This document shows, piece after piece, positions 1-55,806 of a stretch of DNA of 60,000 nucleotides. Position 1 is the stretch's first letter, and each line of letters starts with the position of its first letter. The notes beneath the pieces were generated by a model. That model saw only the letters and a list, made by a program, of their open reading frames with translations. It was not told the DNA's origin and ran no database searches. The position numbers were made by a program, and so were the translations under genes. Origin of the DNA: a virus; IMG/VR virus record IMGVR_UViG_3300025065_000002; one strand, given 5' to 3'.

Positions 1-127
1 CGTTTGCAGGCACGTATTGATGCAACCAATCGCGTTAATGCACCCGACTTACTTGCTGACTTTGAAGCCGACGCGCCTAATGTTCTGAGTAATGATCCAG
101 CGCCTACTAATGCTCAAACAGCCACGC
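1..127. repeat. Window-wrap duplicate of 59874..60000 (circular junction of a 59,873-bp genome)
   Basis: First 127 nt (cgtttgcaggcacgtattga...caaacagccacgc) compared base by base with the last 127 nt: identical. Confidence 0.97.
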
Positions 128-3100
128 AGCTAACCGATGAAAACCCTACGGTTAATATTCCAGCGCCTAAGAAAGCACCAAGAGAGCTGTCAGATAAAGC
201 GATGGTTCGTGAAATACAGAAGCCTACCACCAAAAATACTGAGACGGACTACAGGGCAGCGTTAAACTTATCAGAAGGTCAAAACCTTGGTCGCTTAATT
301 ATGTCTAGCGGCAGAGTTTTTGATGATGCCGTAGTAAAAAGCATGGACGATAAAGGCGTCACAGTAGAAGCAACGGTCAACGGTAAACGTGGATTGCATA
401 AGGGTTTGCAATACCAAACCGTGGATGCAGGTATTAACAACACAAAGAGTTATGCTGAGCAACAAGCAGCGCAGGAAAGCCAAGCAACCCATGAATCTAA
501 GCTTGCAGAGAAGTACGGCTTTAACGATAGTAATAAACTTGATCATGGCGAGCTATCTATCCCTAATCGCACAAAGAACATTGATAGTGAGCTTGATAGG
601 TATAAAGCAGATAAAGCAAAAATTGACGCTAAAAAACTTGATGAAGTTAAAACCAAGAACACTGAAAAGGCAGAAGCAGAGACAGAGCGCTTGTTGCCAA
701 TCAAAGAGCAGGCGCAAGCAGAATACAAGCAGTACGGCACAGCAATGGTCAACGCTTATAAAGATAAGCTTGAGGCGCAAGGGGTGAATGCGCGTGACTT
801 TATACGTGATGAAGCGAAATACAACCCCGAGTCATTCTTGAAGTTATCTAAAAAATTCCAAGAAGAGCAGCAAGCTGAACCTCAGTCTCAAGCGGAAAAA
901 TCGGAAGCGAAAGCCATTAAGCCGCAGTTGAATTGGACTAAAGATGCCAACGGCAGGAAGATATGGCGTGCTGATAACGGTATGATTATAACCGATGAAA
1001 GCATGGTTGTAGGCGGCGTCAGAAACAAATTTTTCTTTCTTTATGAAAACCAAACAGAGCGATATGCTGGCAACAATGTAGAGCGCGGTGAGTCTTTGTC
1101 TGAGGCAAAAGATAAGGCTGAAAGCCTGGTTAAATCAAAACCAGAAGCCGCGCCGGAAACCAAAAAACCGACTGCTAAAACTGAACCATCCGATAATCCT
1201 AGCGCCACTGGTGACTGGCAAACGCAAGTGAATGGCAATGAGTTCCGCATTAACGAAGACGGGATTACTGTACGCAAGCATGACCGAGTTGTTCATATTC
1301 GCGGTGCAAACTCTATAACCGCCAGCAAAAAAGCGAAAGAGCTTGCCAACCAAGATATTCGCGAGCTTCATTATATCGCTGCAAAAGAAGATGCTAGCGA
1401 CCCGTTTAGCGAGGGTTCTATCTGGCTTGATGGCAATGGGGATATGGTGCGCAAAAAAGGAACCAAGAAACCTACTGGCTCCTTACTGCCAATCCTAAAG
1501 CAAGCTGAAACTAAAACAGCACCTAAAAAAGCAGACAAGCCAGCCACGCCTACCGCACCAGTCGCAGAGATTGAGGATTTTGGAGAGAAGATAACTGGTG
1601 CGCGTAAAGACATGCAATCGTTCTATCAAAAAGAAATGACAGACGACGATATTATTAACCAGCCACTCAGCAAGATATGGCCCAAGAAAGACGTTGATGC
1701 CATCGAAGATACGCAGATGGCAGCACTTGCTACCGTTTTTCGTAGCGCCATACCAAGTAAACCAAGAAAAGGTTATAAGCTTGACAGATGGGTAGCGACT
1801 GTAAAAACTTTTCGTGGTGTTATGCAGAGTATGGTTAGCGACACTATTCCATTTGATAAAATTATGGATGGACTGATAGCAAGCGAGAGAATGAGTGAGT
1901 ATGCTTATCATGCAAAACTACTGGCGAAACTAGACAGGGAACAGTGGTCGCGCATTGATAAAGTTGATCCGCAGATAGGCTATCAAAAAAGAAACGAGGC
2001 TGGCGATTACATTCCCTTCGTTGGCTTTGCTGTGACCATCGACAAGAGAACGCATACTTTTAACACTGAGCAAAGAGATATATCAGAGATTATCGACAAG
2101 GTTAATAATCTACTGGGTGGCGAGGTCAAGACGCAAGCATTGAAATTTGACTTGTATAGTCGCGGTCGCGGCGATGCTAAGTCGTGGTTTATCACCCAAG
2201 CCAGCGACAAAGATAAGACGCCGCTTATTGAATTTAACGACAGGGATGCTGCTAGAGCGTTTCTAAAAGAAAACAACAGCGAGCTATCTGAGCTGTGGGA
2301 TCAACACAAAGAGCGCGTAAACGTCAAAAAATCTGACATGCGCTCGAATGTCAACCGTGAGCGCATCGGCCCCGACCATCGCGGCGGTCAAGACGTAACG
2401 ACCGAACAGTTTATGAACACGTTTGGCTTACGTGGCGGTCAGTTTGGTAACTGGGTAAAGCAAGGCGCCAACAGCAAAGACCGTCAGAATATTCTGAACG
2501 ATGCTTATGATGCCTTTATGGACTTGGCAGGCGTGCTTAATATTCCACCTGAAGCGATTGGCTTAGGCGGCAAACTTGCTATGTCGTTTGGTGCTCGCGG
2601 TAAAGGCCGCGCCATGGCGCACTATGAGCCGTCGCAAGTCATCATCAACCTAACCAAAACGCAAGGCGCAGGCTCGCTTGCTCATGAATGGTTCCATGCG
2701 TTAGACAATCACTTCACCTCGTTCCGTGATGATCCTAATCGCTTGACCAGTAAAGAGAATGCTTATATCACCTATAAGCCCGAGCCAATGCTGATTATGA
2801 AAGATCAGAACGGCAATCCTAGTCGTATGCGCCCAATAACAGAGATGCGGCGCAAGCAGTTGTACGAGATGAATAAGAACCGCGCCTACTTACCCGAAAA
2901 CTTTATGCCCGACCCTAATCATAAAGAAGGTGTGCGCCCACAAGTTGAAGTGGCTTTTGCAAACCTGGTAGAGACGCTAGACGAATCACCAATGAAAGCT
3001 CGAGCTGTCACCATTGATAAAGGTGCGCCTGATGGTTATTGGTCACGCATTATCGAGCGTGCAGCGCGAGCGTTTGAAAGCTATGTGATTAACAAGTTAG

Positions 3101-6100
3101 AGAAGCAGGGCGCGCGCAGCGACTTCTTAGCCAACATCACACCTGAAGATGCCTTCCCTCGTAATATGGACAGATACCCATACTTACTACAGAGTGAGAT
3201 GGCGCCAGTGGCAGAAGCGTTTGATAACTTATTTGCCACTCTTGACAGTAAAGCTTCGGAAGACGGTAACGGCAAAACACTTTTTAGTCGTGCCGGACAG
3301 TTAAATGAAGCGATAGATAAAGTGAAGGCTGGCGCGATTGGCAGTACGCAGACCACCCGCCAGCAAGTCATTGGCAAACTAAACGATAAGTTTGGTAAAG
3401 AAACCATTACTAAGCTCATGAGCGACGGCAAACTTGATATCAAAGTGCTGTCCGACTTTATGCAAGACGGCAAGCTGACTATCCCTAGTGATGTCGATGG
3501 TCTATACCACAACGGCAAGGCCACCTTGATTGCAGACAACCTATCTGACGATATGATTATCCCGACCTTCTTACATGAGCTTGGTGGTCATGGTGGGATG
3601 CAAGGCTTGATGGACAAGAAAGCCTACGACGCGCTGATGAGAGATTTTGACAGCCTGGTTAAAGCAGGCGACCCATTAGCCATGCAAGCAAAAGCGATGG
3701 CGGATAAAGTCGCACGTAATGAGCAAGACGCACTCGATGAGTATCTGCCGTACCTAATCACACTTACCTCACGCCAGCAAGCCAAGCAAGGCAAGGTGGC
3801 TGGCATGATCAATCGTATGGTCATGGCGATACGCTCATGGCTTAAAAATACTTTAGGCGTACCGATTACCATTAACTCGCAAGATATCTTGTCACTGGCT
3901 GAACGCATGGTAAACGAGATTGAAAAGCAAGGCTCGCTAGATAACATGGCTAATGCAGCGCCACAATTTAGCGACCCGAATATTCCTGATAAGCAGATGC
4001 AGGACGTGCGCGACCAGTATGAAAATACCGATCAGTGGATGACTGCGCCTAATGGCAAGCCGACCAATTTGACTGAAAACCAGTGGGTGCAAACAAGAAC
4101 ACCAGCCTTTAAAGAATGGTTTGGTGACTGGCAGAACGACCCGAAAAATGCGTCTAAGATAGTCGACGATAATGGTGAGCCAAGAATAACCTATCATCAA
4201 ACAGATGATACGTGGAATACTTTTGACAAGTCGAAAGCCAAGGCTGGCAAGCATGACAATGAAACGCCAACAGGTATATTCGTAAAGGGTAGCGATAGAG
4301 ATATAGGTATTGGTGAGAACTTAAACCAAATGCCTTTATTTACCAATATAAAAAATCCGCTTGAACTAAAAGATAGGCAGGCAGCAAAAAAGTATTATGA
4401 AAGTAATATTGATGGCTATGCTGATATTGTCGCAAGCATGAAAAAGGATGATGACACCTATAGTAAGGCACTCGATGAAGCTGAGAGCAGTATTCAGGCT
4501 GAGTTGAAAAGAAGGTATGAGACTGGCGACCGTTCGCAAAGCTCGAAAGAGTTGTTTAAAAAATCTAGGGATATCCTGAACGAGTGGACAGCCAGTCAAC
4601 AAGCCAACTCGCTCGCTGCTAAAAAACTAATCGATGACCATTTAGCTGAAAACGATATTGACGGTGTGGTTCTTGAAGCAGATGAAGGCTCTTTTGGTCG
4701 AGAAACCGATGCGATTATTGCCATCAATAACAACCAAATCAAGTCTGCCACAGACAATATAGGCACCTTCGATAACACTAACCCTGACATCCGCTTCAGC
4801 GACCCGAACGTGCCAGCCAAACAGCTTGATGATGTTCGTACTAAACACGAAGGCACAGATGAATGGATGAAGGCGCCTAACGGTAGCGATACCAATCTAA
4901 CCGAACAACAATGGTTACAAGTTCGCACGCCAGCGTTCAAGAAATGGTTTGGGGATTGGGAGGATGACGCAGAGAATGCAAGCAAAGTCGTAGATGAAAA
5001 TGGCGAGCCGATGGTGGTTTATCATGGCAGCCCAAAAAGATTCTATAACTTTGACATAGATAACCTTGGTAAGCGCACTAATAACTTGGGGCATTTCGGT
5101 AAGGGTTTCTATTTCACACCAGATATAGATACCGCGAATAGATATGCTGGATATCGTGACTCACAAGGAGATACAGCCTATAACGATTCATCAACCACTT
5201 ATCGCGGTTACTTAAACATTAAGAAACCATTTTACGATACTTACGAAAATCTAAAGCCATACCTCGATGGTGTTGGCGTGCAAAAAATAAAAGATGGTAT
5301 AGATAGGGATTATTTAGAACAGCATATTCTTAATTACGACCCAGCTTTACAGATATTAATTGACGATGTAAACAAATCTAAAAGATATCCTGATGGAGAT
5401 AACACTTACGAGCAATATAAGAAAAACGGTGGCAAGCTTTCGGATGAATATCAGTCAGGCGTGCCTTTAGATTATGATGGGCTAGCTGGGATTCTGTTTG
5501 GAAACATATACCTAACTATGAGTGAGCGTGAGATTGACAGCATTCAAAAAATGATGGGCGCGATACCAGATAAGTATATTAGCGTGGGTTTCTCAGGGCA
5601 ACCGACTTTAGCGGAAGCAACTAGCTATGGTCAGAAGGATAATGGCATTACTGAAAACATAATGTCAGATGGGTTTGATGGGGTGATACACGCACCTGAC
5701 GGTGTGAGCAAGAAGTATATTGAGTACGTCGCCTTTAACCCCAACCAAATCAAATCCGCCACCGACAACGCTGGCACGTTTGACAGCAATAACAACGACA
5801 TCCGTTACAGCCGCGCCGCTGGTATGAATGATCAGTTCGACCCACGCAATATCGCTAAAGAAACAGCGACAAGACTTTACGACTGGGCGAGCTCCGCACC
5901 TCCTGGCAAACTATCGTGGTGGCACAAGACTATTGGCACCATGTATAACCTAGCTCAGCGCAACCCATACTTTAAACCTGTCTTCGAGAACACTGAGAAG
6001 TTTATCAACGATGTGTCGTTCTACGCAGCCAAAGCCTCAGAGCTTGCGCCAAGACTATTGCCGCAGCTTGACTCACTGCGCGATATCACCAAGTCTGCTA

Positions 6101-8775
6101 TCGGTGCCAAGGATAATGAAGCGCTAAGTAAGCCCATTTTTGAAGGTACGTTATTGTGGGGCCGCGACCTTGATGGCAAAGCAGTGCTCATCAAGGACTG
6201 GCGTAAAAAGGTAATGGCAACCTCAAAGCAAGACCGCTTGCAGATGCTAAAAGACGCCAACCGTATCACGCCAGCACAGCTGCAACAGCTTGCCACGCTA
6301 AACAACATCCAAGCCAACCGCTTTATCAATGGCATTATCGATGAAGAAGTGAACGCTGGTCTTGTCTGGACTGACAACGAGCTACGGTCTAAGTTCAATC
6401 TTGACGATAAGCAGATTGAATTATACCGAGAGTTCCGCGCTACCACAGACAATAGCCTTGATAGCATGACGCGCTCAGACATGCTCAGACGTTTGGGTAA
6501 AGATGCGACCGCTATTGAAACGGCAGTCATGGAAGCTGGCACGTTACGCGAAGCGGTCTTTACTATCGAGCAGCATATTAATGGCTTGATACAAGCCAGC
6601 CCGAAAAAAGAGAAGTCGCTAAAGAATACGTTGAAAGATATCAAGGAATCACAATTCCGCACCAATAAGCTAATCGATGATGGTTATGCGCCATTATCAC
6701 GCTTCGGTCAATACACGGTCGATGTCGTCGATAAAGACGGCAACCGTGAATACTTTGGTATGTTTGAATCTGCTTATGAAGCGCGCAAGATGAAGGGCGA
6801 GATGGATGCGCTGTATGGCGATGATCAAGACTTCACTGTTACCCAAGGCGCACTATCGAAAGAAGAGTTTAAATTGTTCGCTGGCGTGACACCTGAAACC
6901 GCTGAATTGTTTGGTGAGATGATGGGGCTTGATGCCACTGGTGACAAAGCGGCTGACGATGCGTTCCAAGAGTACCTACGCCGCACCAAAAACAACCGTA
7001 GCACCATGAAGCGCTTGATGCACCGTAAAGGTATCAAAGGTTATTCTGAAGACGTTGGCCGTGTGCTGGCGAGTTTTGTGTACTCAAATGCGCGTCATAC
7101 CTCAGCTGCTTTAAACATGGGCAACCTTGACCGTAGTATTCAAGACATACCAAAAGGCGAGGGCCAGTTAAAAGATGCTGCAGTCAAACTGGCGGAGTAC
7201 ATTAAAAACCCACAAGAAGAAGGCAACGTCATTCGTGGCTGGATGTTCGCGCAATACTTGGGTGGCTCGATTGCTTCTGCTGCAGTCAACATTACCCAAC
7301 CTATTGCCGTGTCATTCCCTTATCTGTCACAGTTCGGCGGCGCGGTCAAAGCAGCAAGCCAGCTCAAACGCTCAAGCAGTGATTGGGCCAAGTCACTGAA
7401 GAACAAGAACAATGATCACTTTGAGGCAGGCTTACGCGACGCAATCGCACGCGCTGAAGCAGATGGCACACTGTCACCACAAGAGGTTCACAACCTACTC
7501 AAGCAAGCCAGCGGTAAAAACCCACTGAGCGCCGGTGATGGTACAAAAATTGGTAACGCCAAAGCGCTGGCAGGTAACACACTGTCTCGCGTCAGTCTGG
7601 CATGGGGTTCGTTATTTAGTTTGGCAGAACAGGTCAACCGCCGCGTAACTTTTGTGGCAGCGTATCGCATGGCAGTCGAGCAAGGCATGGATAATCCGGC
7701 AGAGTTTGCTACCAAGTCGATTAAAGAAACGCAGTTTGTTTATAACAAAGCGTCACGTATGAATTGGGGGCGGGGTGCTGTCGGTGGCACGCTCATGACG
7801 TTTAAGACTTATACCGTATCTTACATTGAGCTGATGCACAGACTATGGAATCAGGGCGAGAAGGGGTCTGTTGAACGTGCCCAAGGTCGCAAAGCAACCA
7901 TGATTATGCTTGGCGTCATGTTCCTACTATCAGGTTCAGGCGGTTTACCATTTATGGAAGATGCGGAAGACTTGATTGATGGTATTGGTCAAATTATGGG
8001 CTACAACTTATCATCGAAGAAAGCACGACAAGACTTTTTGGATGCGTGGTTTGGTGAGATGATAGGGGACTTTATGGAGTCAGGCGCATCGAGTTTACCG
8101 GGTTCACCGACCGATGTATCAGGTCGATTAGGTCTTGGTAACTTAATACCAGGTACCGGTATTTTTAGAGAGCGCACCAATAATACCCGTGACGTGCTTG
8201 AGGTTGTCGGTCCGGCTGGTGATTTTGTTGGACGTGTCGCAACTGGCACCAGAGATATTGCCAAAGGCGTGGCAAACTTAGACGCCACAAGTATCAAGAA
8301 AGGTACATTAGAGCTCGCACCTACCGCCGTTCGCAACGCGGTCAAAGGTATAAGTATGGGCACATCGGGTATTTATAAAGATACCAAAGGCTATAAAGTC
8401 ACTGACGTGTCACCCGTTGATGCGGCTTTTAAATTTGCAGGATTCCAGCCGCTAAAAGTATCTAAGATTCAAGAGGCTAACTATCTTGGTCAAACGAATA
8501 CTTCTTACTACAGTTTGCGCGCCTCAAATATCCGCGCACTGTGGGCGGCTGGCGTGGTCGAAGGCAATAGCAGTAAAGTTGCTGATGCACGCGCTGCAGT
8601 TGCAGACTGGAATAACAAAAATCCTGATCAAAAAATCATCATCAAGCCCACTGATATCGCTCGCCGTGTCCGTGAGATGAAGATGGATAAGTCAGAGCGC
8701 GTCACCAAGCTGGCACCAAAGTCAATGCGCGCACAAATGGCGTCAGACTTTGCACAAGTACGTGACGGTTTTTAA
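1..8775 (+). CDS. Giant polyvalent virion protein, C-terminal part (codons 959-3882)
   Basis: ORF track 4..8775 (its TTG start is an artefact of the window edge). TAA stop at 8773-8775 is followed by an intrinsic terminator. Recognisable motifs: DFGEKITGARKD, GGQFGNWV...SLAHEWFHALDNHF, FLHELGGHGG, two YH..(G)FYFT-type modules each ending NQIKSATDN.GTFD...DIR(F/Y)S, and GYAPLSRFGQYTV. Confidence 0.9.
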   Translation, partial: RLQARIDATNRVNAPDLLADFEADAPNVLSNDPAPTNAQTATQLTDENPTVNIPAPKKAPRELSDKAMVREIQKPTTKNTETDYRAALNLSEGQNLGRLIMSSGRVFDDAVVKSMDDKGVTVEATVNGKRGLHKGLQYQTVDAGINNTKSYAEQQAAQESQATHESKLAEKYGFNDSNKLDHGELSIPNRTKNIDSELDRYKADKAKIDAKKLDEVKTKNTEKAEAETERLLPIKEQAQAEYKQYGTAMVNAYKDKLEAQGVNARDFIRDEAKYNPESFLKLSKKFQEEQQAEPQSQAEKSEAKAIKPQLNWTKDANGRKIWRADNGMIITDESMVVGGVRNKFFFLYENQTERYAGNNVERGESLSEAKDKAESLVKSKPEAAPETKKPTAKTEPSDNPSATGDWQTQVNGNEFRINEDGITVRKHDRVVHIRGANSITASKKAKELANQDIRELHYIAAKEDASDPFSEGSIWLDGNGDMVRKKGTKKPTGSLLPILKQAETKTAPKKADKPATPTAPVAEIEDFGEKITGARKDMQSFYQKEMTDDDIINQPLSKIWPKKDVDAIEDTQMAALATVFRSAIPSKPRKGYKLDRWVATVKTFRGVMQSMVSDTIPFDKIMDGLIASERMSEYAYHAKLLAKLDREQWSRIDKVDPQIGYQKRNEAGDYIPFVGFAVTIDKRTHTFNTEQRDISEIIDKVNNLLGGEVKTQALKFDLYSRGRGDAKSWFITQASDKDKTPLIEFNDRDAARAFLKENNSELSELWDQHKERVNVKKSDMRSNVNRERIGPDHRGGQDVTTEQFMNTFGLRGGQFGNWVKQGANSKDRQNILNDAYDAFMDLAGVLNIPPEAIGLGGKLAMSFGARGKGRAMAHYEPSQVIINLTKTQGAGSLAHEWFHALDNHFTSFRDDPNRLTSKENAYITYKPEPMLIMKDQNGNPSRMRPITEMRRKQLYEMNKNRAYLPENFMPDPNHKEGVRPQVEVAFANLVETLDESPMKARAVTIDKGAPDGYWSRIIERAARAFESYVINKLEKQGARSDFLANITPEDAFPRNMDRYPYLLQSEMAPVAEAFDNLFATLDSKASEDGNGKTLFSRAGQLNEAIDKVKAGAIGSTQTTRQQVIGKLNDKFGKETITKLMSDGKLDIKVLSDFMQDGKLTIPSDVDGLYHNGKATLIADNLSDDMIIPTFLHELGGHGGMQGLMDKKAYDALMRDFDSLVKAGDPLAMQAKAMADKVARNEQDALDEYLPYLITLTSRQQAKQGKVAGMINRMVMAIRSWLKNTLGVPITINSQDILSLAERMVNEIEKQGSLDNMANAAPQFSDPNIPDKQMQDVRDQYENTDQWMTAPNGKPTNLTENQWVQTRTPAFKEWFGDWQNDPKNASKIVDDNGEPRITYHQTDDTWNTFDKSKAKAGKHDNETPTGIFVKGSDRDIGIGENLNQMPLFTNIKNPLELKDRQAAKKYYESNIDGYADIVASMKKDDDTYSKALDEAESSIQAELKRRYETGDRSQSSKELFKKSRDILNEWTASQQANSLAAKKLIDDHLAENDIDGVVLEADEGSFGRETDAIIAINNNQIKSATDNIGTFDNTNPDIRFSDPNVPAKQLDDVRTKHEGTDEWMKAPNGSDTNLTEQQWLQVRTPAFKKWFGDWEDDAENASKVVDENGEPMVVYHGSPKRFYNFDIDNLGKRTNNLGHFGKGFYFTPDIDTANRYAGYRDSQGDTAYNDSSTTYRGYLNIKKPFYDTYENLKPYLDGVGVQKIKDGIDRDYLEQHILNYDPALQILIDDVNKSKRYPDGDNTYEQYKKNGGKLSDEYQSGVPLDYDGLAGILFGNIYLTMSEREIDSIQKMMGAIPDKYISVGFSGQPTLAEATSYGQKDNGITENIMSDGFDGVIHAPDGVSKKYIEYVAFNPNQIKSATDNAGTFDSNNNDIRYSRAAGMNDQFDPRNIAKETATRLYDWASSAPPGKLSWWHKTIGTMYNLAQRNPYFKPVFENTEKFINDVSFYAAKASELAPRLLPQLDSLRDITKSAIGAKDNEALSKPIFEGTLLWGRDLDGKAVLIKDWRKKVMATSKQDRLQMLKDANRITPAQLQQLATLNNIQANRFINGIIDEEVNAGLVWTDNELRSKFNLDDKQIELYREFRATTDNSLDSMTRSDMLRRLGKDATAIETAVMEAGTLREAVFTIEQHINGLIQASPKKEKSLKNTLKDIKESQFRTNKLIDDGYAPLSRFGQYTVDVVDKDGNREYFGMFESAYEARKMKGEMDALYGDDQDFTVTQGALSKEEFKLFAGVTPETAELFGEMMGLDATGDKAADDAFQEYLRRTKNNRSTMKRLMHRKGIKGYSEDVGRVLASFVYSNARHTSAALNMGNLDRSIQDIPKGEGQLKDAAVKLAEYIKNPQEEGNVIRGWMFAQYLGGSIASAAVNITQPIAVSFPYLSQFGGAVKAASQLKRSSSDWAKSLKNKNNDHFEAGLRDAIARAEADGTLSPQEVHNLLKQASGKNPLSAGDGTKIGNAKALAGNTLSRVSLAWGSLFSLAEQVNRRVTFVAAYRMAVEQGMDNPAEFATKSIKETQFVYNKASRMNWGRGAVGGTLMTFKTYTVSYIELMHRLWNQGEKGSVERAQGRKATMIMLGVMFLLSGSGGLPFMEDAEDLIDGIGQIMGYNLSSKKARQDFLDAWFGEMIGDFMESGASSLPGSPTDVSGRLGLGNLIPGTGIFRERTNNTRDVLEVVGPAGDFVGRVATGTRDIAKGVANLDATSIKKGTLELAPTAVRNAVKGISMGTSGIYKDTKGYKVTDVSPVDAAFKFAGFQPLKVSKIQEANYLGQTNTSYYSLRASNIRALWAAGVVEGNSSKVADARAAVADWNNKNPDQKIIIKPTDIARRVREMKMDKSERVTKLAPKSMRAQMASDFAQVRDGF
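2359..3135 (+). other. LPD1-type HExxH (metallopeptidase-like) module of the giant protein
   Basis: FGLRGGQFGNWVKQGANSKDRQNILNDAYDAFMDLAGVLNIP...AMSFGARGKGRAMAHYEP..INLTKTQGAGSLAHEWFHALDNHF. The HEWFH codons are at 2683-2697, followed by ERAARAFESYV. Confidence 0.65.
3967..4800 (+). other. ART-like module 1 (apparently degenerate)
   Basis: FSDPNIPDKQMQDVR...TPAFKEWFGDWQNDPKNASKIVDDNGEPRITYHQT...GIFVKG...DAIIAINNNQIKSATDNIGTFDNTNPDIRFS. It is collinear with module 2, but the Tyr (GFYFT) and Glu (IEYVAF) positions are replaced. Confidence 0.55.
4801..5811 (+). other. ART-like module 2 (H-Y-E-type signature intact)
   Basis: DPNVPAKQLDDVR...TPAFKKWFGDWEDDAENASKVVDENGEPMVVYHGS (5020-5031)...GKGFYFT (5101-5118)...YIEYVAFNPNQIKSATDNAGTFDSNNNDIRYS (Glu codon at 5722-5724). 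Confidence 0.6.
6691..6708 (+). other. PLxRFG motif of the giant protein
   Basis: Codons cca tta tca cgc ttc ggt encode PLSRFG within IDDGYAPLSRFGQYTVDVVD. Downstream are hydrophobic segments and AEQVNRRVTFVAAYRMA. Confidence 0.6.
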
Positions 8776-8810
8776 GTAGTCCAACTACCGAGGATTCCTC
8801 GAAACATCAA

Positions 8811-8838
8811 AGCTCACCCTAAGCGGTGGGCTTTTTTG
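8811..8838 (+). terminator. Intrinsic terminator after the giant gene
   Basis: Stem agctcacc / ggtgggct (8 bp including one G-U), loop ctaagc, then a T6 run. Confidence 0.8.
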
Positions 8839-8855
8839 TGTCTGATTTTTGGCAC

Positions 8856-8872
8856 ACCCCTATAAGGTTCGC
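8856..8872 (+). promoter_or_regulatory. Late-block motif copy 1 (ACCCCTATAAGGTTCGC)
   Basis: Exact 17-mer shared with 28561 and 35887; a 14-mer is shared with 55737. It lies 18 nt after the terminator T-run and 92 nt before ATG 8948. Confidence 0.6.
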
Positions 8873-8998
8873 TACTCACAACCTATCTTGATTAAATGAT
8901 GATTATTGAAACGATATATAAATCTATTAATCAGAAAAGGATTAACCATGGCGGATATGAAGTAGTACACAGGAACAAAAGTTGTTAATGCCACACCA

Positions 8999-12154: not shown

Positions 12155-12449
12155 GCCTCACAATACCTTAGTACAACTTTACGGGTATCAATCGGATGAC
12201 TCATGCGCGGTGAGAAGTATAAGGAAACGCACATCATCTGCCAGTGTTTTTGCATGTCGTAGCACCGCTGGTCTGACTACGTTCGCTCTATCTGGAAACC
12301 CAGCCCTAGCGACTAGGGATTACTGCGTCAATCAACTACAAGGAATGGTGATAATCATAGCACGCTATTACCTAACACACCATAGACACACAAAAATAAA
12401 ACAACTTAAATTATATCTTTTAAATCATGCGCTTGTTAAACCGTGTGCG

Positions 12450-12624: not shown

Positions 12625-12667
12625 TGCACACAACACACACACGTATTGACACACGGAATTGGCAACC

Positions 12668-13813
12668 ATGATAACCAAAGACGCACAAGTAAAAGCCCTA
12701 AAACCAGAGGATAAGCGCTACTCAAAATCGTTAGGCGATGGTTTATCTATCGATGTTATGCCGTCTGGAAAAAAGTCATGGGTGCTGGCTTATGTTAAGG
12801 CTGGCAAGCGCACACGAACTAAGCTTGGCACATATCCAGTGTTATCACTTAAAGATGCTCGCACGCTCGCGCAAGAAATGCAGCGCCAAGCCATCATGGG
12901 TTATAACGACATACTGGTTGAGGGTTTAGTGCAAGAATGGCTATCTGTGTACTCGCCAGCATGGACAAGCCAAAAGTATCACGATACGGTCGTGTATCGA
13001 CTAGAATTAGTGACACACCGCATTGCAAAGGTAAAAGCGAACGATGTTAATCGCGCCATGATATCGAACGAGATCAGCTTACTTATCGCCAACGGCACCA
13101 TAGAGACAGCAAACCGATGTTTGCGTCTGCTTAACTCATTGTTTGACTATGCGCTGGCCAAAGACTATGTTCAGAATAATCCTTGCTCATTGGTTAGTAA
13201 GATGATACCGTCGCGCAAAGTGATTAACATGCCTTGTCTGCCTATTACTGAAATGCCAAAATTTTGGACCAAGCTTAATTATATGGATATGCAGTTTGAG
13301 ACAAAACAGGCAATCGCTTTATATAACTACCTTGCCTGCCGCCCAAGTGAGCTTGCAAAGGCAAGATGGGATACGGGAGAGTTTGATTTAGATAATGGTG
13401 TGTGGTTGATACCAGCACACAGAATGAAGATGCGCCAAGAGCACATGATACCGCTGACTGAAAAACCATTAGAGATATTGCGCGAGATTTACGCTAATCG
13501 TACCAATGATGAGTATGTGTTTAAGAAAAAGAACAAGCCATGGGAACACATGCCAACCGAAACGCCACTGGCAGCAATCAAGCGTGCGGCTGGGGCTGGC
13601 AAGATGACCACACACGGCTTTAGGTCATTATTATCGACGCACGCCAACGCCTCAAAAGAGTTCGATAAGGATGTTATCGAGCGTCACCTGGCACACGTAC
13701 CGGAGAATAAAGGCCGCTTTGCCTACAATCGCGCTGACTACTGGGACGAGCGCGTTCGTCTTATGGAATGGTGGTCAGATATTGTTACACCTTGGATTTA
13801 TGGACAGGCATAA
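12668..13813 (+). CDS. int: Tyrosine integrase, P4-like (DUF4102-type N-terminal arm-binding domain)
   Basis: The N-terminus KDAQVKALKPEDKRYSKSLGDGLSIDVMPSGKKSWVLAY...LGTYPVLSLKDAR is typical of P4-type integrases. The C-terminus has HGFRSLLSTHA, ERHLAH and Y in FAYNRADYW. The track starts at TTG 12659; I prefer ATG 12668. Confidence 0.9.
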   Translation: MITKDAQVKALKPEDKRYSKSLGDGLSIDVMPSGKKSWVLAYVKAGKRTRTKLGTYPVLSLKDARTLAQEMQRQAIMGYNDILVEGLVQEWLSVYSPAWTSQKYHDTVVYRLELVTHRIAKVKANDVNRAMISNEISLLIANGTIETANRCLRLLNSLFDYALAKDYVQNNPCSLVSKMIPSRKVINMPCLPITEMPKFWTKLNYMDMQFETKQAIALYNYLACRPSELAKARWDTGEFDLDNGVWLIPAHRMKMRQEHMIPLTEKPLEILREIYANRTNDEYVFKKKNKPWEHMPTETPLAAIKRAAGAGKMTTHGFRSLLSTHANASKEFDKDVIERHLAHVPENKGRFAYNRADYWDERVRLMEWWSDIVTPWIYGQA

Positions 13814-19559: not shown

Positions 19560-20258
19560 CTACCAGCGCTCCATGTTTGACCATTCCCAGACCCAACCAA
19601 GCACCTCAACATCACTCATATCTTCCGGCAGAACAATCTCGTCAGGGTATGCTGGATTATGGCTGCGAATTAACAGACCTCCATCTGGTCGCATGTATAG
19701 ATACTTAGTGCGCCTCATCACACCATGCCTTATACAATAAATCTTACCATCTTTAATCTCTTTTTTACTGGCGTCAGCAGTACACCTTGCGCCATCTGAT
19801 ATACGCTCGGCCATACTGTCACCATCATTCATATAACTAAAAGACTGCGTGATGCTAGCACCTGCCTTGCGAGCTGATCGCTTGCTCATTCTTATTTTTT
19901 TATCCGTCACTTCTTGTACCTCGCCCTCTTGGTTCCCTGCCGTTACAACTACCTTGTCGTAATAAGGTATCTCAAACTCATCATCATCAAGTTCGGTATC
20001 TTCATCCCAACCAACTACAGCAGAATAGCCTCGATAAGCCTCATCCCTGCCTGTGATTAAAAACTCCGCGCTGACGCCCAGCACCTCCGCCAACCCATTC
20101 ATATTACTGCCCGTTGGTTCAGACTGACCATTACGCCATTTACCTACAGCTACCTTAGATACGTTTAGCTTTTCGGCAATCTTGACGTTATTAAGACCTG
20201 ATTCGATTATCAAGTCGTTAATCCTATGCCCCATCTGCTCTAACTCAATATTGGTCAT
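19560..20258 (-). CDS. CI-like repressor (XRE HTH plus S24 LexA-type autopeptidase)
   Basis: The N-terminus LNNVKIAEKLNVSKVAVGKWRNGQSEP is an HTH. The C-terminus has GDSMAERI (Ser nucleophile) and KYLYMRPDGGLLIRSHNP (Lys region). Confidence 0.9.
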   Translation of the reverse strand: MTNIELEQMGHRINDLIIESGLNNVKIAEKLNVSKVAVGKWRNGQSEPTGSNMNGLAEVLGVSAEFLITGRDEAYRGYSAVVGWDEDTELDDDEFEIPYYDKVVVTAGNQEGEVQEVTDKKIRMSKRSARKAGASITQSFSYMNDGDSMAERISDGARCTADASKKEIKDGKIYCIRHGVMRRTKYLYMRPDGGLLIRSHNPAYPDEIVLPEDMSDVEVLGWVWEWSNMERW

Positions 20259-20366: not shown

Positions 20367-20564
20367 ATGACTCTTGACGATATCAAAGTCTTCTATGGGT
20401 TTCAGTATGACGCGGAAGTTGCTCGTAAGTTTAACCTTACCAAGACCGCTATCGGTAAGTGGCGCTCAAACGGCATTCCTACCAAGCGTCAAGCTGTCAT
20501 CCAAGTTCTTACCAACAATAAGTTAAAGGCGGATTTATCAGCCTTAGCAGCAGAGGAGGCCTAA
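20367..20564 (+). CDS. Cro/YdaS-like HTH regulator
   Basis: It is divergent from cI and contains VARKFNLTKTAIGKWRSNGIPTKRQ. Confidence 0.75.
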   Translation: MTLDDIKVFYGFQYDAEVARKFNLTKTAIGKWRSNGIPTKRQAVIQVLTNNKLKADLSALAAEEA

Positions 20565-27394: not shown

Positions 27395-27503
27395 GGGTGG
27401 TAAATAAAAACCGCCCACGTTGGCAGACGTGAGCGGTTTGGCTGGCAAGTAACAGAGCAATGTTATCGCATGTTGATTATATAATACTTTGAGGACGAAT
27501 CAC

Positions 27504-27971
27504 ATGCAGATGACGAACAAGCAAAGAGTATTGGACGCGATTATCGACTTGCATAATCAGGAGCAGATAGTCACACGCGAAACGCTGTCTGACATAATTG
27601 ATTTAAAAATGTCGATTATAGACGATAACCTAACCACGCTTACTAATGATGGTTTTATTCATCGCGTGCAGCGTGGCGTCTATGTGCCGACAGTCGAGCA
27701 CAAGCCAGCGCGAATTATCAGCAAGATTGTATTGCCGGACGGCACGACAGTGATAGATATCGGTGACAAGACAGTCCTTACGCTGACACCAAAGGAGAGC
27801 AGGATACTTGGCAATCTCATGATGTGTGAGGCATTGCAGTACAGCAATATAGAGTCAGGTCATCATGCAGCGTTGACGACAGCTAAGATGGATTTAGAGT
27901 TGAAGAATATGCGCAAGGTGCTAAGAGAGTTATCAGCACACACGCAGACGGCTCAGGCTGGCTTGTTTTAA
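27504..27971 (+). CDS. Winged-helix-like DNA-binding protein, candidate late-gene regulator
   Basis: GAGGA lies 8 nt before ATG 27504. KQRVLDAIIDLHNQEQIVTRETLSDIIDLKMSIIDDNLTTLTNDGFIHRVQRGVYVP. It is one of the last early genes before the late block. Confidence 0.5.
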   Translation: MQMTNKQRVLDAIIDLHNQEQIVTRETLSDIIDLKMSIIDDNLTTLTNDGFIHRVQRGVYVPTVEHKPARIISKIVLPDGTTVIDIGDKTVLTLTPKESRILGNLMMCEALQYSNIESGHHAALTTAKMDLELKNMRKVLRELSAHTQTAQAGLF

Positions 27972-27988
27972 AAACTACGGAGTTAATT

Positions 27989-28426
27989 ATGGTTAGTCGA
28001 TTTTACTTAAATGCCGAAGATAAAATGAAAGATGGCTCGATAGACTGGGTGAATGATACCGTTAAAGCTATGTTTGTTAATACACAGATATATAACTTTG
28101 ATGCCGCGCATTCTGCTTTATCGGATATTTCTTTATCGGCGCGTGTTGGCAAAGCTGCGTCATTGACAAACAAAAGGTTTGTTTTTGATGCAGCTGCCGC
28201 AGATGACTTGTACTTTGAATATCTGATTGGCGCTATGGTTGGCAGTCTAGTTTTATACAAAGATAATGGTGAAGACGATACAAGTGACTTAATTGTTTAT
28301 ATTGGCAACTGCTTTGGCATGCCTTTTTTGCCTAACGGTGGTGACGTTACGATCACTTGGGATAGAGGTTTGAAGAAGATATTTACGCTATACGACATGC
28401 CTGCCACGACACGTAGTTGCGTGTAA
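27989..28426 (+). CDS. Paralogue of virion-module gene 40084..40491
   Basis: Blocks shared with 40084..40491 are I(D/N)W..DT.K, LSDIS.SAR, YKD.G, LI.YI and G.P..PNGGD...TWD.G..KIF.L. Confidence 0.7.
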   Translation: MVSRFYLNAEDKMKDGSIDWVNDTVKAMFVNTQIYNFDAAHSALSDISLSARVGKAASLTNKRFVFDAAAADDLYFEYLIGAMVGSLVLYKDNGEDDTSDLIVYIGNCFGMPFLPNGGDVTITWDRGLKKIFTLYDMPATTRSCV

Positions 28427-28455: not shown

Positions 28456-28480
28456 ACCTCGCAAAACGTGAGGTTTTTTT
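28456..28480 (+). terminator. Intrinsic terminator ending the rightward early operon
   Basis: Short stem acctc / gaggt then a T7 run, followed by gtgcc as at the other late-block terminators. Confidence 0.6.
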
Positions 28481-28560
28481 GTGCCTGACAACCATTAATT
28501 GCGATAAAACGCATTAAACGCGCATTAAATTGCTCGCCAGCTCGCACAGCGTGCGTCCTT

Positions 28561-28577
28561 ACCCCTATAAGGTTCGC
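28561..28577 (+). promoter_or_regulatory. Late-block motif copy 2 (ACCCCTATAAGGTTCGC)
   Basis: Exact 17-mer, 71 nt upstream of the TerS ATG at 28632. Confidence 0.6.
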
Positions 28578-28631
28578 ACTTTTCACGTACAGGCTCTAAC
28601 ATCATGCTATTAAAGGCGTTTGGAGTCTGTC

Positions 28632-35804: not shown

Positions 35805-35834
35805 AGCTAGCCAGCTTTAACACTACAAACCCAA

Positions 35835-35858
35835 ACCACCCTTCGCGGTGGTTTTTTT
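35835..35858 (+). terminator. Intrinsic terminator after the packaging/accessory block
   Basis: Stem ccacc / ggtgg (extendable), then a T7 run, followed by gtgcc. Confidence 0.65.
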
Positions 35859-35886
35859 GTGCCAAAAATTGGCTGGTAAGCCCGAC

Positions 35887-35903
35887 ACCCCTATAAGGTT
35901 CGC
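35887..35903 (+). promoter_or_regulatory. Late-block motif copy 3 (ACCCCTATAAGGTTCGC)
   Basis: Exact 17-mer, 115 nt upstream of the scaffold ATG at 36002. Confidence 0.6.
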
Positions 35904-36001
35904 ATAAAAGCTTGCCAACGCTTAAATTGTTATCAAGCCATTGCTAGTGGCGAAACCTGTTTTTTAACGGTAGCCCTCCGACATGGGTAAAGGACAGATT
36001 A

Positions 36002-45500: not shown

Positions 45501-46389
45501 TGTTACGGGTATTCCTAGGTCGGATATAAAGGTATCAATCCCAAGGGTATCGCCGCATACAATATGGTCGGTAAAAGAAGCTCCGGCTCAAGCTATTTTA
45601 AATCACGGAGCTATAGACCAGCTACACTATGTCGGAGAAAGGTTTGGCGGAGGCTCAGGTAGTTCGAGAGTGGGGCGCCCAAAAGTAGAAAGCACCATTC
45701 GGACGATTTATGTAGATAGCAATAAATCAAACCACTCTATTGTTAGTAACAGACATTCTATTGACTCAACAATAAGGATTGTTGACTGCTATGGGTTTAG
45801 GTTGGTTAGATTTGGTATTCCAAGTATTCCGTTTACACCGCAAGGCATAGAAATAAGAAGCGGAATACAGGCAACAGTCTTTGGTAGGCATAGCGTTGCC
45901 CCACCCCCTTATAACGGTCCTAGGTATTTGGAGCCACTAAGCTGGGAAAGCATGGTTTTCTCTAGGAGCAGTATAGATAACCTACATCGCCGCCTTTACG
46001 TTAAAGGCGAGGATTACTTGCTATTAGGTAAAAGCGTTGGCGGCGATAAGCCGTTTATGTGGCAAGGCTTGAGAATTGGCGAAAGAATACCTACGTCTAT
46101 TGGCGCTGGGGACACCTCTTTATTAGGATCTGCAACCATAGGTCTTTTGATAAGAGGTATTGAGCCACAAGGATTGCTAGGCTTCTCCAGTGGTTATGAT
46201 TTGGAGAGTTTTTATGAGCGCATGACGGTTGTTAATTCATATAAATACATACCTGATCAAAAAATTATCAGCGAAGCAACCATACCGTCACCCGGAGATA
46301 TGCCGACACCGGACGTGAGGTTAGGTCAAAGGATTATTACTCCGGACGGCAACTCAGATCAATTCAGAAAAGGAGGCTATCATGCCTAG
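42544..46389 (+). CDS. 1,281-aa repeat-rich virion protein (tail fibre/baseplate-like)
   Basis: Dozens of degenerate repeats with an (F/Y)G...alternating hydrophobics...G pattern, e.g. AFGYASLARGDRVLAV, YGTQTIWFHTRALLPTG, GYGDTNIWFKNRVVEHYG and RHGVAWISFSNRVVSV. Confidence 0.78.
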   Translation: MSDNAYTNDYPLDFTQVLSEVGDDLNFAPDNLLFIDPIGITTSAFGYASLARGDRVLAVTGFDALNIPTANIDFNNLSGSSSLDFNKTLTLGDTTLNFGSDDKSHKLFIQPLGFESTLLPLPFLESSIRYITGSGFYSQTTGTPAAANLNKYLFSSAIPSSLSFGSSKIFNNALVLKPNSIDSLDYGKAAIYNLKQYLRHNQSYSNDELYGKPSLGGGVRPLLPTGLLSTLLGKIDVKNPTEDQLLKPTGINSLKIPEHTLSPRMVYADGFYKPKTGSPSVRISGMSVSGFAGTYYGTQTIWFHTRALLPTGVVGFLTGSPRVFDPTQFVSPPSSVQSAVFGDIAIRNKSKIARPLGIIAGTVSPWSLVENYNRSYLAQGIYSQLFGSINVANKTPSIFTESIEGKAAGVPAIGYRLRQVKPSGFDRLALGSAKLIKSPELSALGIDAAGYGDTNIWFKNRVVEHYGVDYQTLGTPTTWFRYRYYKPKAWRSDSYGYPVLTHGNRGIDARGFVNDRHGVAWISFSNRVVSVKHINNVFPSTHKVGGTQTINTDGYIATLFGERIIPESMTLYPLGFTGVFGTADTKLATMFISPWGYISVGDQYSDRWGLADTYNLTQYITQEYDFDSGLVPPKWSEWTLIENRDKSIGAVGSLFQKFGYSSIYNNAAPLLPVGIGEPASSTKNTFVSHDKRSLPLIGIEPPVISTWSSIYNAARVITTHGDSHSFYGQPFTESNRRYYKDIGRIDDLVLGDPMIAYRIRGIDIESRHSIAPPQINLPTFDLWARYLSLSGGDTSSYGLSVLTIQLRNIAPSWAHRDKYGQPVLKNVTPELGVYGHDSSEFGTNSLRTEWRYVQAVGDSISLFGGASISDRRLFIDIRGWRSSQVNTKAQLVKTESNPNTLQYIWLSDESGSAGGEGYGIFFDENILGKRVPWPSLNQNVLYPKGIKVDGYGLAFTWSNNIVIESGIAIDGVPKTLTVSNYSNKIAVTGIPRSDIKVSIPRVSPHTIWSVKEAPAQAILNHGAIDQLHYVGERFGGGSGSSRVGRPKVESTIRTIYVDSNKSNHSIVSNRHSIDSTIRIVDCYGFRLVRFGIPSIPFTPQGIEIRSGIQATVFGRHSVAPPPYNGPRYLEPLSWESMVFSRSSIDNLHRRLYVKGEDYLLLGKSVGGDKPFMWQGLRIGERIPTSIGAGDTSLLGSATIGLLIRGIEPQGLLGFSSGYDLESFYERMTVVNSYKYIPDQKIISEATIPSPGDMPTPDVRLGQRIITPDGNSDQFRKGGYHA

Positions 46390-47560
46390 TCAAAGTTTTA
46401 TGCCATGTCGCGGTATCGATAACACCAGTGAAGATGCCGCGATGGTACAAGGTGGCCGCGAGCCATTCGTTTATATGCGCGATGTGGTGAACGCCAATGT
46501 CACGCCAGCTGGCAAGATAGATATGATTGCCAGTGGTGGAAAAGTGACTGACAGCCCTTATAAGGATATGTGGCAAAGCCCACTACATAAAGACGTGTTT
46601 GCACTATATGTTAATGACTGGGTAAAGGTGAAGATAGAAGGTAATAGCTGGTCGCATGAAACGCTTGCGACTATCGGTGATGGTGATGTATCTCATACGG
46701 TACTAAACAATCTAGTCGTGGTAGCTGGCAAGTATGGCTTATACACTTATGATGGTCATCTAGCGATACCGCTAATTACCCAAACACCGCCGCCGCCATT
46801 CTTAGCCACATTGATAGCAGACCACACCCGAACAAGAAGCATCGCTATATCCTGGTTGCGTGGCTCGATGGAGTCTAGCTTGTCTAGTTATGTGTCGATG
46901 GGTACAGATGGTGACATAGTACTACCTATGGTGACAGACCCTAATGTGACTGGCGTGAATATCTATGCTACCAATGTCGGCGGTACTGACATTCAGTTAG
47001 CAGGGACAGTCAATCGTGACGCTACCAGCTTTACTATTACTGCCGATCATAAACTTGGTATGGCGGCACAGTTCGCCCATCTATCGCCTATGCCTACCGG
47101 TAAATTTTTATGCTACTGGCGTGGTCGACTAATTACTGCAACTGCAAACGTCATTCGTTTTTCTGAACCACTGGCCTACCACTTGCATGATGAACGCCAC
47201 GGCTTTATTCAGACCAGCCAGCGTATCACCTTTATTCAGCCAGTCGAGAATGGCTTGTGGGTTGGTCAGTCTGATCATGTGATATTTATATCTGGCACCA
47301 GTCCTGAAGATATGACCATCTCCATTAAGAGCGCACAAGCTCCCATACCAAACAGCGCGATACAGATACCAAGCAATGATATTGGTGAGGCGAGCGAGGG
47401 CGGCAGCTTAGTAACTGTATGGCTGGCAAGTAACGGTTATGTGGCTGGCAGCAGTGCTGGACAGATAATTGAGTACCAAGCTGGGCGCATTAGTAATATC
47501 AGCGCTCAGTCTGGCACTACTGTAAGGTTCGACCGAAGGCTTGTCACAGCGGTAAACTGA
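46382..47560 (+). CDS. Virion structural protein
   Basis: AAGGAGG RBS and an 8-nt overlap with the upstream gene. Confidence 0.7.
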   Translation: MPSQSFMPCRGIDNTSEDAAMVQGGREPFVYMRDVVNANVTPAGKIDMIASGGKVTDSPYKDMWQSPLHKDVFALYVNDWVKVKIEGNSWSHETLATIGDGDVSHTVLNNLVVVAGKYGLYTYDGHLAIPLITQTPPPPFLATLIADHTRTRSIAISWLRGSMESSLSSYVSMGTDGDIVLPMVTDPNVTGVNIYATNVGGTDIQLAGTVNRDATSFTITADHKLGMAAQFAHLSPMPTGKFLCYWRGRLITATANVIRFSEPLAYHLHDERHGFIQTSQRITFIQPVENGLWVGQSDHVIFISGTSPEDMTISIKSAQAPIPNSAIQIPSNDIGEASEGGSLVTVWLASNGYVAGSSAGQIIEYQAGRISNISAQSGTTVRFDRRLVTAVN

Positions 47561-47591: not shown

Positions 47592-48182
47592 ATGACCCAC
47601 GAAAAGCAAGCAGCAATCAAGATACTAGCAGCCGCAATGGCAGCTGCTCAATACTCGGAAAATAGCGATGGCAGTATTACTACTAAAGGTGGTATTACTG
47701 CTAAGGGTGAATACTATGACCGCATCAATGGCGGCGAGTGGACACGTACTGAAAACCTTATCCCAACCGAAGGTTTGGCGCACATTCTAAACGTCGCGCT
47801 TGGCACTACGCCAAAACCTGCCAGCTACCATTTAGCGCTATTTTCAGCCGCAGCTCAACCAACCGCTAACTGGACAGCTGCAAGCTTTGCTAGTACCGCA
47901 AGTGAAATCGTCAGTATGACTGAAGGTTATAGTGCCGCAACTCGCCCAACGTGGACGCCTGCCAACACTGCTACCAATTCTATTGACAACATGGCAGCCG
48001 TTGCAAAAGTTACCATGCGAACCGCAAGCAGCTTGACGGTACAAGGCGCAGCCATGCTGACCAATAGCAGTAAAGGCAGTACCGCTGGCGCGCTCATTAG
48101 TGCTAGTAAGTATGCAGCGCCTCGCGTCTTTCAAGATGGTGATACCTACGAGATTGGCTATCGTATCAGCCTGACGGTGTAG
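47592..48182 (+). CDS. Virion structural protein
   Basis: The track ORF starts at 47574. ATG 47592 has a GGAGA RBS. Confidence 0.62.
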   Translation: MTHEKQAAIKILAAAMAAAQYSENSDGSITTKGGITAKGEYYDRINGGEWTRTENLIPTEGLAHILNVALGTTPKPASYHLALFSAAAQPTANWTAASFASTASEIVSMTEGYSAATRPTWTPANTATNSIDNMAAVAKVTMRTASSLTVQGAAMLTNSSKGSTAGALISASKYAAPRVFQDGDTYEIGYRISLTV

Positions 48183-55727: not shown

Positions 55728-55736
55728 GTCCTGCCC

Positions 55737-55750
55737 ACCCCTATAAGGTT
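55737..55750 (+). promoter_or_regulatory. Late-block motif copy 4 (ACCCCTATAAGGTT)
   Basis: The 14-mer is identical to the other three copies and lies 67 nt upstream of the 55804 ORF start. Confidence 0.55.
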
Positions 55751-55806
55751 TTAAGAAACTTAGTATATCCGCCATACTCATCTAAAGTCTAATTGAATTA
55801 TAGGTG

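Follow-up and report, generated by a model that had tools for sequence, protein, structure and literature searches.

We found that a motif of 14 to 17 bases, repeated in the genome of a temperate phage, is a real and strongly conserved cis-element, and that it tracks one gene, that of a 155-aa winged-helix protein (27504..27971) and its relatives. We favor, with moderate confidence, the reading in which the motif is the upstream half of five sigma-70 late promoters that would depend on this protein as their activator. What was observed directly, in the genomes described below, is how the sites are built, that they are conserved and that they occur together with the protein. On the sequences compared, the arrangement is general to F116-like phages, whose hosts are many bacteria.

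The DNA analyzed was a single stretch of 60,000 nucleotides (the window). Its last 127 nt (59874-60000) are identical to its first 127 nt (1-127), and the window is a wrap-around of a circular or circularly assembled complete phage genome of 59,873 bp. Because of this wrap-around, our counts of the motif span the whole genome. The phage is temperate, with an integrase (12659..13813), a CI-like repressor (19560..20258, minus strand), a Cro-like protein (20367..20564), an early-left operon on the minus strand (SSB, RecT, exonuclease), and an early-right operon followed by late genes on the plus strand. A DarB-like polyvalent ORF of 3,882 aa runs across the window junction (57000-59873 joined to 1-8775, plus strand), with ART-PolyVal, LPD5 and LPD1 as its only domains; it is probably transcribed from copy 4 of the motif together with gene 55813..56988. 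Among sequenced phages it is closest to Shewanella phage Y11 and Pseudoalteromonas phage Y7. By homologs of the regulator it groups with prophages of Psychrobacter and, at a greater distance, with the Hollowayvirus phages of Pseudomonas, which are F116-like. Beside the integrase region there is a match to the Rfam small RNA Proteo-phage-1 (RF03044) at 12236-12318 on the minus strand (45.9 bits, gathering score 42).

An exact search of both strands of the window recovered the 14-mer ACCCCTATAAGGTT at 8856, 28561, 35887 and 55737, always on the plus strand, in agreement with the initial annotation of this DNA. There were no further exact copies on either strand of the whole window. The copies at 8856, 28561 and 35887 continue with CGC to give a 17-mer, and the copy at 55737 continues with TTTAAG. 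By arithmetic, chance alone would yield any one 14-mer ~4e-4 times in 2 x 60 kb. A shuffle test allowing up to three mismatches was uninformative (6 found vs 3.3 expected), as was the frequency of the exact 14-mer in viral contigs, where the matches were mostly single ones, probably due to chance, along with a few relatives.

We scored the window with a position matrix that covers positions -1 to 16 of the motif and the hexamer downstream of it (see below). The matrix was trained only on 21 unrelated genome loci, with the window excluded. The four exact sites scored 23.7-28.5, compared with a maximum of 20.0 over 100 Markov shuffles of the window (mean 13.1, sd 2.2). Matrix matches in the window were at 55738, 28562, 35888, 8857 and 47517, all on the plus strand, and nothing beyond these five sites exceeded the shuffle maximum. 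The number of sites reported initially therefore holds for the four exact copies, but a fifth, degenerate site (CTACTGTAAGGTTCGAC, starting at 47517, matrix score 22.9) had been missed. This site is in coding sequence, at the 3' end of gene 46382..47560, and its conservation may come in part from coding constraint.

Table 1. Coordinates of the sites, the candidate promoter elements and the neighboring features in the window, and of the corresponding sites in related phages.
Feature	Coordinates	Strand	Remarks
Candidate late activator, 155 aa, phrog_8117 / F116 gp37 family	27504..27971	+	PHROG E-value 2.5e-46
Candidate late promoter upstream element, copy 1, CACCCCTATAAGGTTCGC	8855..8872	+	matrix score 23.7
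Candidate -10, copy 1: TTAAAT (offset 36) or TAAATG (offset 37)	8892..8898	+	predicted start ~8904-8905
Candidate late promoter upstream element, copy 2, TACCCCTATAAGGTTCGC	28560..28577	+	matrix score 26.6
-10-like hexamer, copy 2: TAACAT (offset 36)	28597..28602	+	predicted start ~28609
Candidate late promoter upstream element, copy 3, CACCCCTATAAGGTTCGC	35886..35903	+	matrix score 26.0
-10-like hexamer, copy 3: TAAATT (offset 36)	35923..35928	+	predicted start ~35935
Fifth, degenerate site, CACTACTGTAAGGTTCGA	47515..47532	+	matrix score 22.9, above null maximum
-10-like hexamer, fifth site: TAAACT (offset 37)	47553..47558	+	predicted start ~47565
Candidate late promoter upstream element, copy 4, CACCCCTATAAGGTTTTA	55736..55753	+	matrix score 28.5
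-10-like hexamer, copy 4: CATACT (offset 36)	55773..55778	+	predicted start ~55785
Intrinsic terminator ending the copy-4 transcription unit	8809..8834	+	22 nt upstream of copy 1
Intrinsic terminator ending the early-right operon	28456..28474	+	upstream of copy 2
Intrinsic terminator ending the packaging unit	35833..35854	+	upstream of copy 3
Matrix sites in Y11	12887, 24606, 56383, 5462, 48895	+	
Matrix sites in Y7	56356, 48959, 14220, 37471, 28744	+	
Matrix sites in F116	22728, 28681, 39376, 45731, 59202	+	
Counterparts of copy 1	Y11 24606, Y7 14220, F116 59202		F116 site before holin gene
Counterparts of copy 2	Y11 48895, Y7 28744, F116 22728		F116 site 3 nt after gp37 stop
Counterparts of copy 3	Y11 56383, Y7 37471, F116 28681		
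Counterparts of the fifth site	Y11 5462, Y7 48959, F116 39376		
Counterparts of copy 4	Y11 12887, Y7 56356, F116 45731		

The sites precede recognizable groups of late genes. Copy 1 comes after the terminator of the giant polyvalent-protein gene and before the accessory and lysis block that begins at 8999. Copy 2 precedes the small terminase gene (ATG at 28632), copy 3 a gene in the scaffold position (36002) and the major capsid gene, and the fifth site gene 47574/47592..48182. Copy 4 precedes gene 55813..56988 and the gene for the 3,882-aa polyvalent protein (57000..59873 joined to 1..8775). The distance from each copy to its first gene had been given as 67-115 nt, which is incorrect for copy 1: the first long ORF, at 8999, is 143 nt away. 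That ORF has no obvious ribosome-binding site. Ahead of it, in the leader downstream of copy 1, there is a mini-ORF of five codons (MADMK, 8949-8963, plus strand) with a good ribosome-binding site.

Three of the copies follow intrinsic terminators, as had been reported (Table 1), and the one upstream of copy 2 (28456..28474) follows both the regulator gene and gene 27989..28426. There were no terminators called between any of the five sites and its first gene. The T-runs of the three terminators do continue as TTTGTG(T/C)C (8835-8847, 28475-28487 and 35855-35867), as the initial annotation stated, but the continuation is not special to the late motif. It is also present after the minus-strand terminator at 19525-19504 (continuation at 19503-19494) and in Y11. 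TTTGTG(T/C)C is a general terminator-context feature of this phage on both strands, and it is not part of the motif.

The region around copy 4 contains an inserted minus-strand gene (54906-55727), located between the tail genes and copy 4; Y11 has no gene there. A sigma-70-like promoter on the minus strand (TAGACT-18-TATACT, 55762-55791) overlaps the candidate late promoter of copy 4 back to back, and the reverse complement of the CCCC in the motif supplies a GGGG just upstream of the ATG at 55727. This arrangement suggests competition between promoters, with a minus-strand gene expressed in the lysogen on one side and the late unit of copy 4 on the other.

The five sites in the window are syntenic with five sites in each of Y11, Y7 and F116 (Table 1), and the DNA flanking these sites has diverged. 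In Y11, sites of the type CCCCTGTAAGGTT are found at the same junctions. The same five late-operon starts are marked in all three phages, in line with the initial placement of the motif at the starts of late gene blocks. The weakest of the syntenic sites score below the shuffle maximum of the window (Y11 48895, 17.5; Y7 37471, 18.1; Y7 28744, 11.5; F116 39376, 16.0). Acidovorax phage AP1, a very distant relative with a regulator that is 36% identical, has five plus-strand sites of a variant form, sssGyGTAGGGTTCGCGCG, located before its small terminase gene, structural blocks and holin gene. In AP1 and in locus L138 (regulators 36-46% identical), CCCCT is degenerate and TAGGGTTCGC is stronger. 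We considered co-variation of protein and site as proof of specificity and rejected it, the shift in AP1 and L138 being too mild.

We collected 55 loci that encode a relative of the regulator. They comprised 21 genome loci, from Psychrobacter, Acinetobacter, Pseudomonas, Azoarcus and Curvibacter, and 34 viral contigs. At least one plus-strand match of 19 or more was present in every one of the 21 genome loci, and there were no minus-strand matches of 16 or more in any of them. Matches were present in 33 of the 34 viral contigs (81 matches, all on the plus strand and all downstream of the gene), and the remaining contig ends ~590 nt after the regulator gene. A simple count of the pattern gave 61 occurrences on the plus strand compared with 4 on the minus strand. 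Over the 55 loci, all strong sites were on the strand of the regulator gene and almost all were downstream of it; the 10 kb upstream of the gene was free of the motif in nearly all loci. The winged-helix protein had been put forward as a candidate for the phage factor, and the co-occurrence of its relatives with the motif, biased to one strand and mostly to the downstream side, strengthens that proposal.

No other early genes were comparably conserved among the 21 genome loci. Because the loci were collected through the protein, the co-occurrence of motif and protein is partly by construction, and the independent control consists only of two phages that lack the protein and have related portals, phage 933W and Vibrio phage douglas 12A4. 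Neither had a match above 10.4. The portal of 933W, a phage that uses a Q antiterminator, is 32% identical to that of the phage studied here.

To describe the element, 37 non-redundant sites were aligned without gaps. Information content was found over positions -1 to 16, which read (A/C)(A/C)CCCCTnTARGGTTyG(A/C), and there was no conservation upstream of the motif in this alignment. The motif is barely dyad-symmetric. Downstream of it, a -10-like hexamer of the form nAnAnT (A in second place, T in sixth) was present at a fixed offset in 28 of the 37 sites. Of these 28 hexamers, 18 begin at offset 36 and 10 at offset 37, with a background of ~2.5 per offset (binomial P ~4e-17). The start codon lies at a variable distance from the site (~55-130 nt), the -10-like hexamer at a constant one.

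If the downstream hexamer is a -10, then the 11-mer (A/C)(A/C)CCCCTnTARGG would be located at ~-47 to -37, with its center at ~-42. Positions 13-18, which read TCGCAC, TCGACA or TTTAAG and make a poor -35-like hexamer, would then form a weak -35 with a 17-bp spacer. Because the -10-like hexamer follows at a fixed offset, we read the motif as an upstream element, probably an activator site at ~-47 to -37 rather than the core of a promoter. None of the five sites was called on the plus strand in a scan with a generic sigma-70 consensus; such a scan is expected to be blind to them because the -35 is poor. Among the five candidates for the -10, that of copy 1 is the weakest, lacking the combination of A at position 2 and T at position 6 (-10 sub-score, -0.5). 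The hexamer of the fifth site overlaps the TGA stop of the upstream gene, and that of copy 4 is identical in Y11, Y7 and locus L120. In many Acinetobacter relatives (prophages L125, L127, L130-L132 and L134) the motif ahead of the small terminase gene is followed, ~25-35 nt on, by a palindrome with GATC, ATGATCAT. This palindrome overlaps the -10 predicted for the small terminase gene and may add a further layer of control, regulatory or sensitive to methylation.

Among the conserved genes of the early-right operon, 27504..27971 comes last. Only two early-region genes of the window have counterparts in both Y11 and Y7, and of these it is the longer and better conserved. F116 gp37 is 40% identical to its product over 92% of the query. 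In most loci the regulator gene is directly upstream of the first site (the gap in F116 is 3 nt). In a predicted model of the protein (pLDDT 78), the N-terminus forms a winged helix, and there are also three beta strands and a long helix at the C-terminus. The long helix points to a dimer, whereas the motif is barely dyad-symmetric, and the recognition helix is predicted to be acidic (IIDDN). Fold searches matched generic winged-helix DNA binders and nothing else, all at E-values no better than 4e-3, and the C-terminal part of the protein had no matches. There was no Pfam domain above threshold in the 155-aa protein. A stretch that looks AbrB-like (LTLTPKEARxLG) was supported by no search and was discarded.

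The N-terminus of the protein is weakly similar to the winged helices of AbiEi and DtxR, and the weak match to AbiEi covers residues ~5-76 (PADLOC E-value 5e-5; NCBIfam 19.8 bits vs a cut-off of 150). Pfam AbiEi_4 was matched in some homologs, and the homologs in BK061591.1 and BK061585.1 are annotated as 'putative AbiEi antitoxin of type IV toxin-antitoxin system'. We rejected an identity as AbiEi/AbiEii antitoxin, in that residues 5-76 are the only part that matches, far below the cut-offs, and the C-terminal two thirds of the protein are unrelated to AbiEi antitoxins. The annotation is probably an over-transfer, because only the N-terminal winged helix matches and there is no adjacent gene for an AbiEii nucleotidyltransferase toxin.

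Two further features are found next to the regulator gene. Just upstream of it is a strong hairpin with a 13-bp stem (27408-27439) that has a T-run on the minus strand only; there is no nearby minus-strand gene for it to terminate. Between the regulator gene and the early-right terminator is gene 27989-28426 (plus strand), a paralog, 41% identical, of the conserved late gene 40084-40491 (plus strand), whose counterparts in Y11 and Y7 are annotated 'minor tail subunit'. Gene 27989-28426 appears to be an early-expressed duplicate of a virion gene. There was no extra copy of this paralog in Y11, Y7 or F116, each of which had a single match, at the late gene.

In the reading we favor, the five promoters would be read by the sigma-70 RNA polymerase of the host. 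Each would consist of the element at ~-47 to -37, a poor -35-like hexamer (TCGCAC, TCGACA), a 17-bp spacer and a weak -10-like hexamer, and alone the five would be nearly silent. Transcription of the early-right operon would end with the activator gene (27504..27971), and the 155-aa protein would then bind the element beside the defective -35 and recruit or stabilize RNA polymerase, in the manner of other activators positioned beside a -35. Terminators upstream of the sites would insulate the late units from read-through, and for that reason late expression would wait for the activator. The units turned on would be those for packaging, head, tail, lysis, and ejection together with the giant polyvalent protein. 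Where transcription starts, that the 155-aa protein binds the element and that it activates are all predictions made here from sequence. Counting against this reading are the poor -10 candidate of copy 1, the near lack of dyad symmetry in the motif, the acidic recognition helix and the location of the fifth site in coding sequence. The initial annotation had described the motif as a phage-specific late promoter that needs a phage factor. Synteny and the association over 55 loci uphold that description, except that the motif is not read here as the core of the promoter.

The most serious alternative is that the motif is itself the core promoter, with TAAGGT(T) as the -10 and with RNA polymerase re-specified by a phage factor that is sigma-like or appropriates sigma, possibly the same 155-aa protein. 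Transcription would possibly start just downstream, in CGC, and the downstream hexamer would serve another purpose, for example as a sigma-dependent pause element. With A in second place and T in sixth, TAAGGT could be a -10 for a modified polymerase; TAAGGT and AAGGTT carry this combination in 25 and 22 of the 37 sites, respectively. There is no -35 conserved upstream of the motif, which is also reminiscent of T4 late promoters, since these need only a -10-type element, and the association with the protein fits equally well. We nonetheless consider this alternative unlikely. It leaves unexplained the invariant CCCC and the second hexamer at a fixed offset with a properly spaced weak -35. In addition, there was no sigma-like protein detected among the proteins of the window, and the only recognizable domain of the 155-aa protein is a generic winged helix. 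Pfam scans of nearly all the early, small and giant ORFs found no members of the RNA polymerase, sigma, Q, Ogr or Mor families, and the initial remark that there is no phage RNA polymerase gene agrees with the proteins found in the window; the presence of a highly diverged phage polymerase or sigma factor is possible. Promoters for other sigma factors were rejected. CCCCTnTA looks like the -10 of sigma-32 promoters, CCCCATnT, but the aligned sites have no conserved -35 at 13-15 bp upstream; sigma-54 and ECF promoters, judged by inspection, need spacings that the sites do not have.

It is about as doubtful that the 155-aa protein is a new kind of initiation factor, rather than an ordinary recruiter, that would act together with the 18-bp element CCCCTnTARGGTTyGM in place of recognition of the -35. 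By analogy, such a factor could take over or substitute for sigma region 4, as T4 MotA/AsiA does, or it could be a surrogate for the -35. If so, regulator and site would be a portable late-switch cassette that other mobile elements could exploit, and the cassette would have kept one DNA specificity from Psychrobacter to Curvibacter, over ~36-100% protein identity.

We regard it as very unlikely that the motif is a loading site for a Q-like processive antiterminator that makes polymerase resistant to terminators. The regulator gene is where Q would be, at the end of the early-right operon and before the late genes, and phages with related portals, such as 933W, use Q. The -10-like element after the binding site also recalls the pause element of lambda PR'. 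However, there was no Q family among the window's proteins, there are five sites rather than one, and no strong constitutive promoter was called at any of them. Further, the terminators are upstream of the sites and not between a site and its first gene.

The least credible readings take the motif out of transcription initiation by the phage. An RNA element (a signal for processing, stability or translation at the operon junctions of read-through transcripts) would account for the strict strand bias and the intergenic position, yet the consensus fold of 16 sites is only -0.17 kcal/mol with a 3-bp stem, there is no match to an Rfam family at any site, three of the sites are just downstream of strong terminators, and it is the hexamer and not the start codon that is at a constant distance. 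A DNA site with a function outside transcription, a host-factor site or a generic host repeat seems just as improbable. In F116-like phages a pac site is located close to the terminase gene (PMC12708760), and one copy of the motif is just upstream of the small terminase gene. A pac site is rejected because there are five copies on one strand, each at the start of an operon. The same counts argue against a host repeat, as does the absence of the motif from the minus strand and, in nearly all 55 loci, from the region upstream of the regulator. A site for a host factor fits poorly with conservation across gamma- and betaproteobacterial hosts of a motif that is tied to one phage gene.

Activator-dependent sigma-70 promoters, the reading we prefer, would provide a testable model of late control for a large group, the F116-like (Hollowayvirus) temperate podoviruses and prophages of Pseudomonas, Acinetobacter, Psychrobacter, Shewanella, Pseudoalteromonas and some Betaproteobacteria. 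They would define five late transcription units per genome and give a probable function to the widespread phrog_8117 / F116 gp37 family, sometimes annotated as an AbiEi antitoxin. A short, orthogonal pair of promoter and activator could be of use in annotating, silencing or engineering these phages, and F116-type capsids already serve as delivery vehicles (PMC12708760). The searchable literature on F116, Hollowayvirus and late activators, which does not extend to the original F116 genome paper, describes neither the motif nor a role for the protein.

One close functional parallel is with phage Mu, where a small phage DNA-binding protein from the preceding temporal class activates transcription. 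The middle promoter of Mu is activated by Mor and the late promoters Plys, PI, PP and Pmom by C, and the late promoters share an activator site centered in the low -40s, a usable -10 and a poor -35. Our phage would likewise have several promoters with one activator site, centered at ~-42 if the downstream hexamer is the -10. The site here is asymmetric, not a dyad as in Mu; the protein is predicted to fold as a winged helix with a long helix after it, and the Mor/C family domain was not found in the window. Phages P2, 186 and P4 (Ogr, B and Delta) are similar in having approximately four late operons with the same activator site in a temperate phage without a late antiterminator. Their activators are zinc fingers of ~72 aa that contact the alpha subunit, and the Ogr site is TGT-N12-ACA near -55; neither this site nor a zinc-finger protein (by Pfam, including the small ORFs) was found here. 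Phage P1 (Lpa) also has many identical late promoters in which a -10 is combined with a phage-specific element in place of the -35. In P1 that element is between the -10 and the -35, at ~-22, and the host protein SspA is needed, whereas the element described here would be upstream of the -35 position. As the window has neither the proteins nor the sites of the Mu, P2 and P1 systems, the phage belongs to none of the three.

With the Q / PR' system of lambda, as in 933W, our phage shares the position of the regulator gene at the end of the early-right operon and a distantly related portal and head module. It differs in having no Q homolog, five sites, and terminators that are upstream rather than downstream; 933W in turn lacks both the regulator and the motif. 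Winged-helix activators of the PhoB/OmpR type bind beside or overlapping a defective -35 and touch sigma region 4. The likeness to these is functional only, a winged-helix protein at what would be a defective -35, and there is no receiver domain and no direct-repeat site in our case. In P2, Mu and P1 it is usual for several late promoters to be identical and to depend on an activator, and the arrangement of sites seen here is the norm across the F116-like group, so that the initial description of such an arrangement as unusual was overstated. The system involves no new principle. It would be another case of many late promoters under one activator, here a putative activator that appears to be unrelated to Mu C, P2 Ogr and P1 Lpa and to belong to an uncharacterized family.
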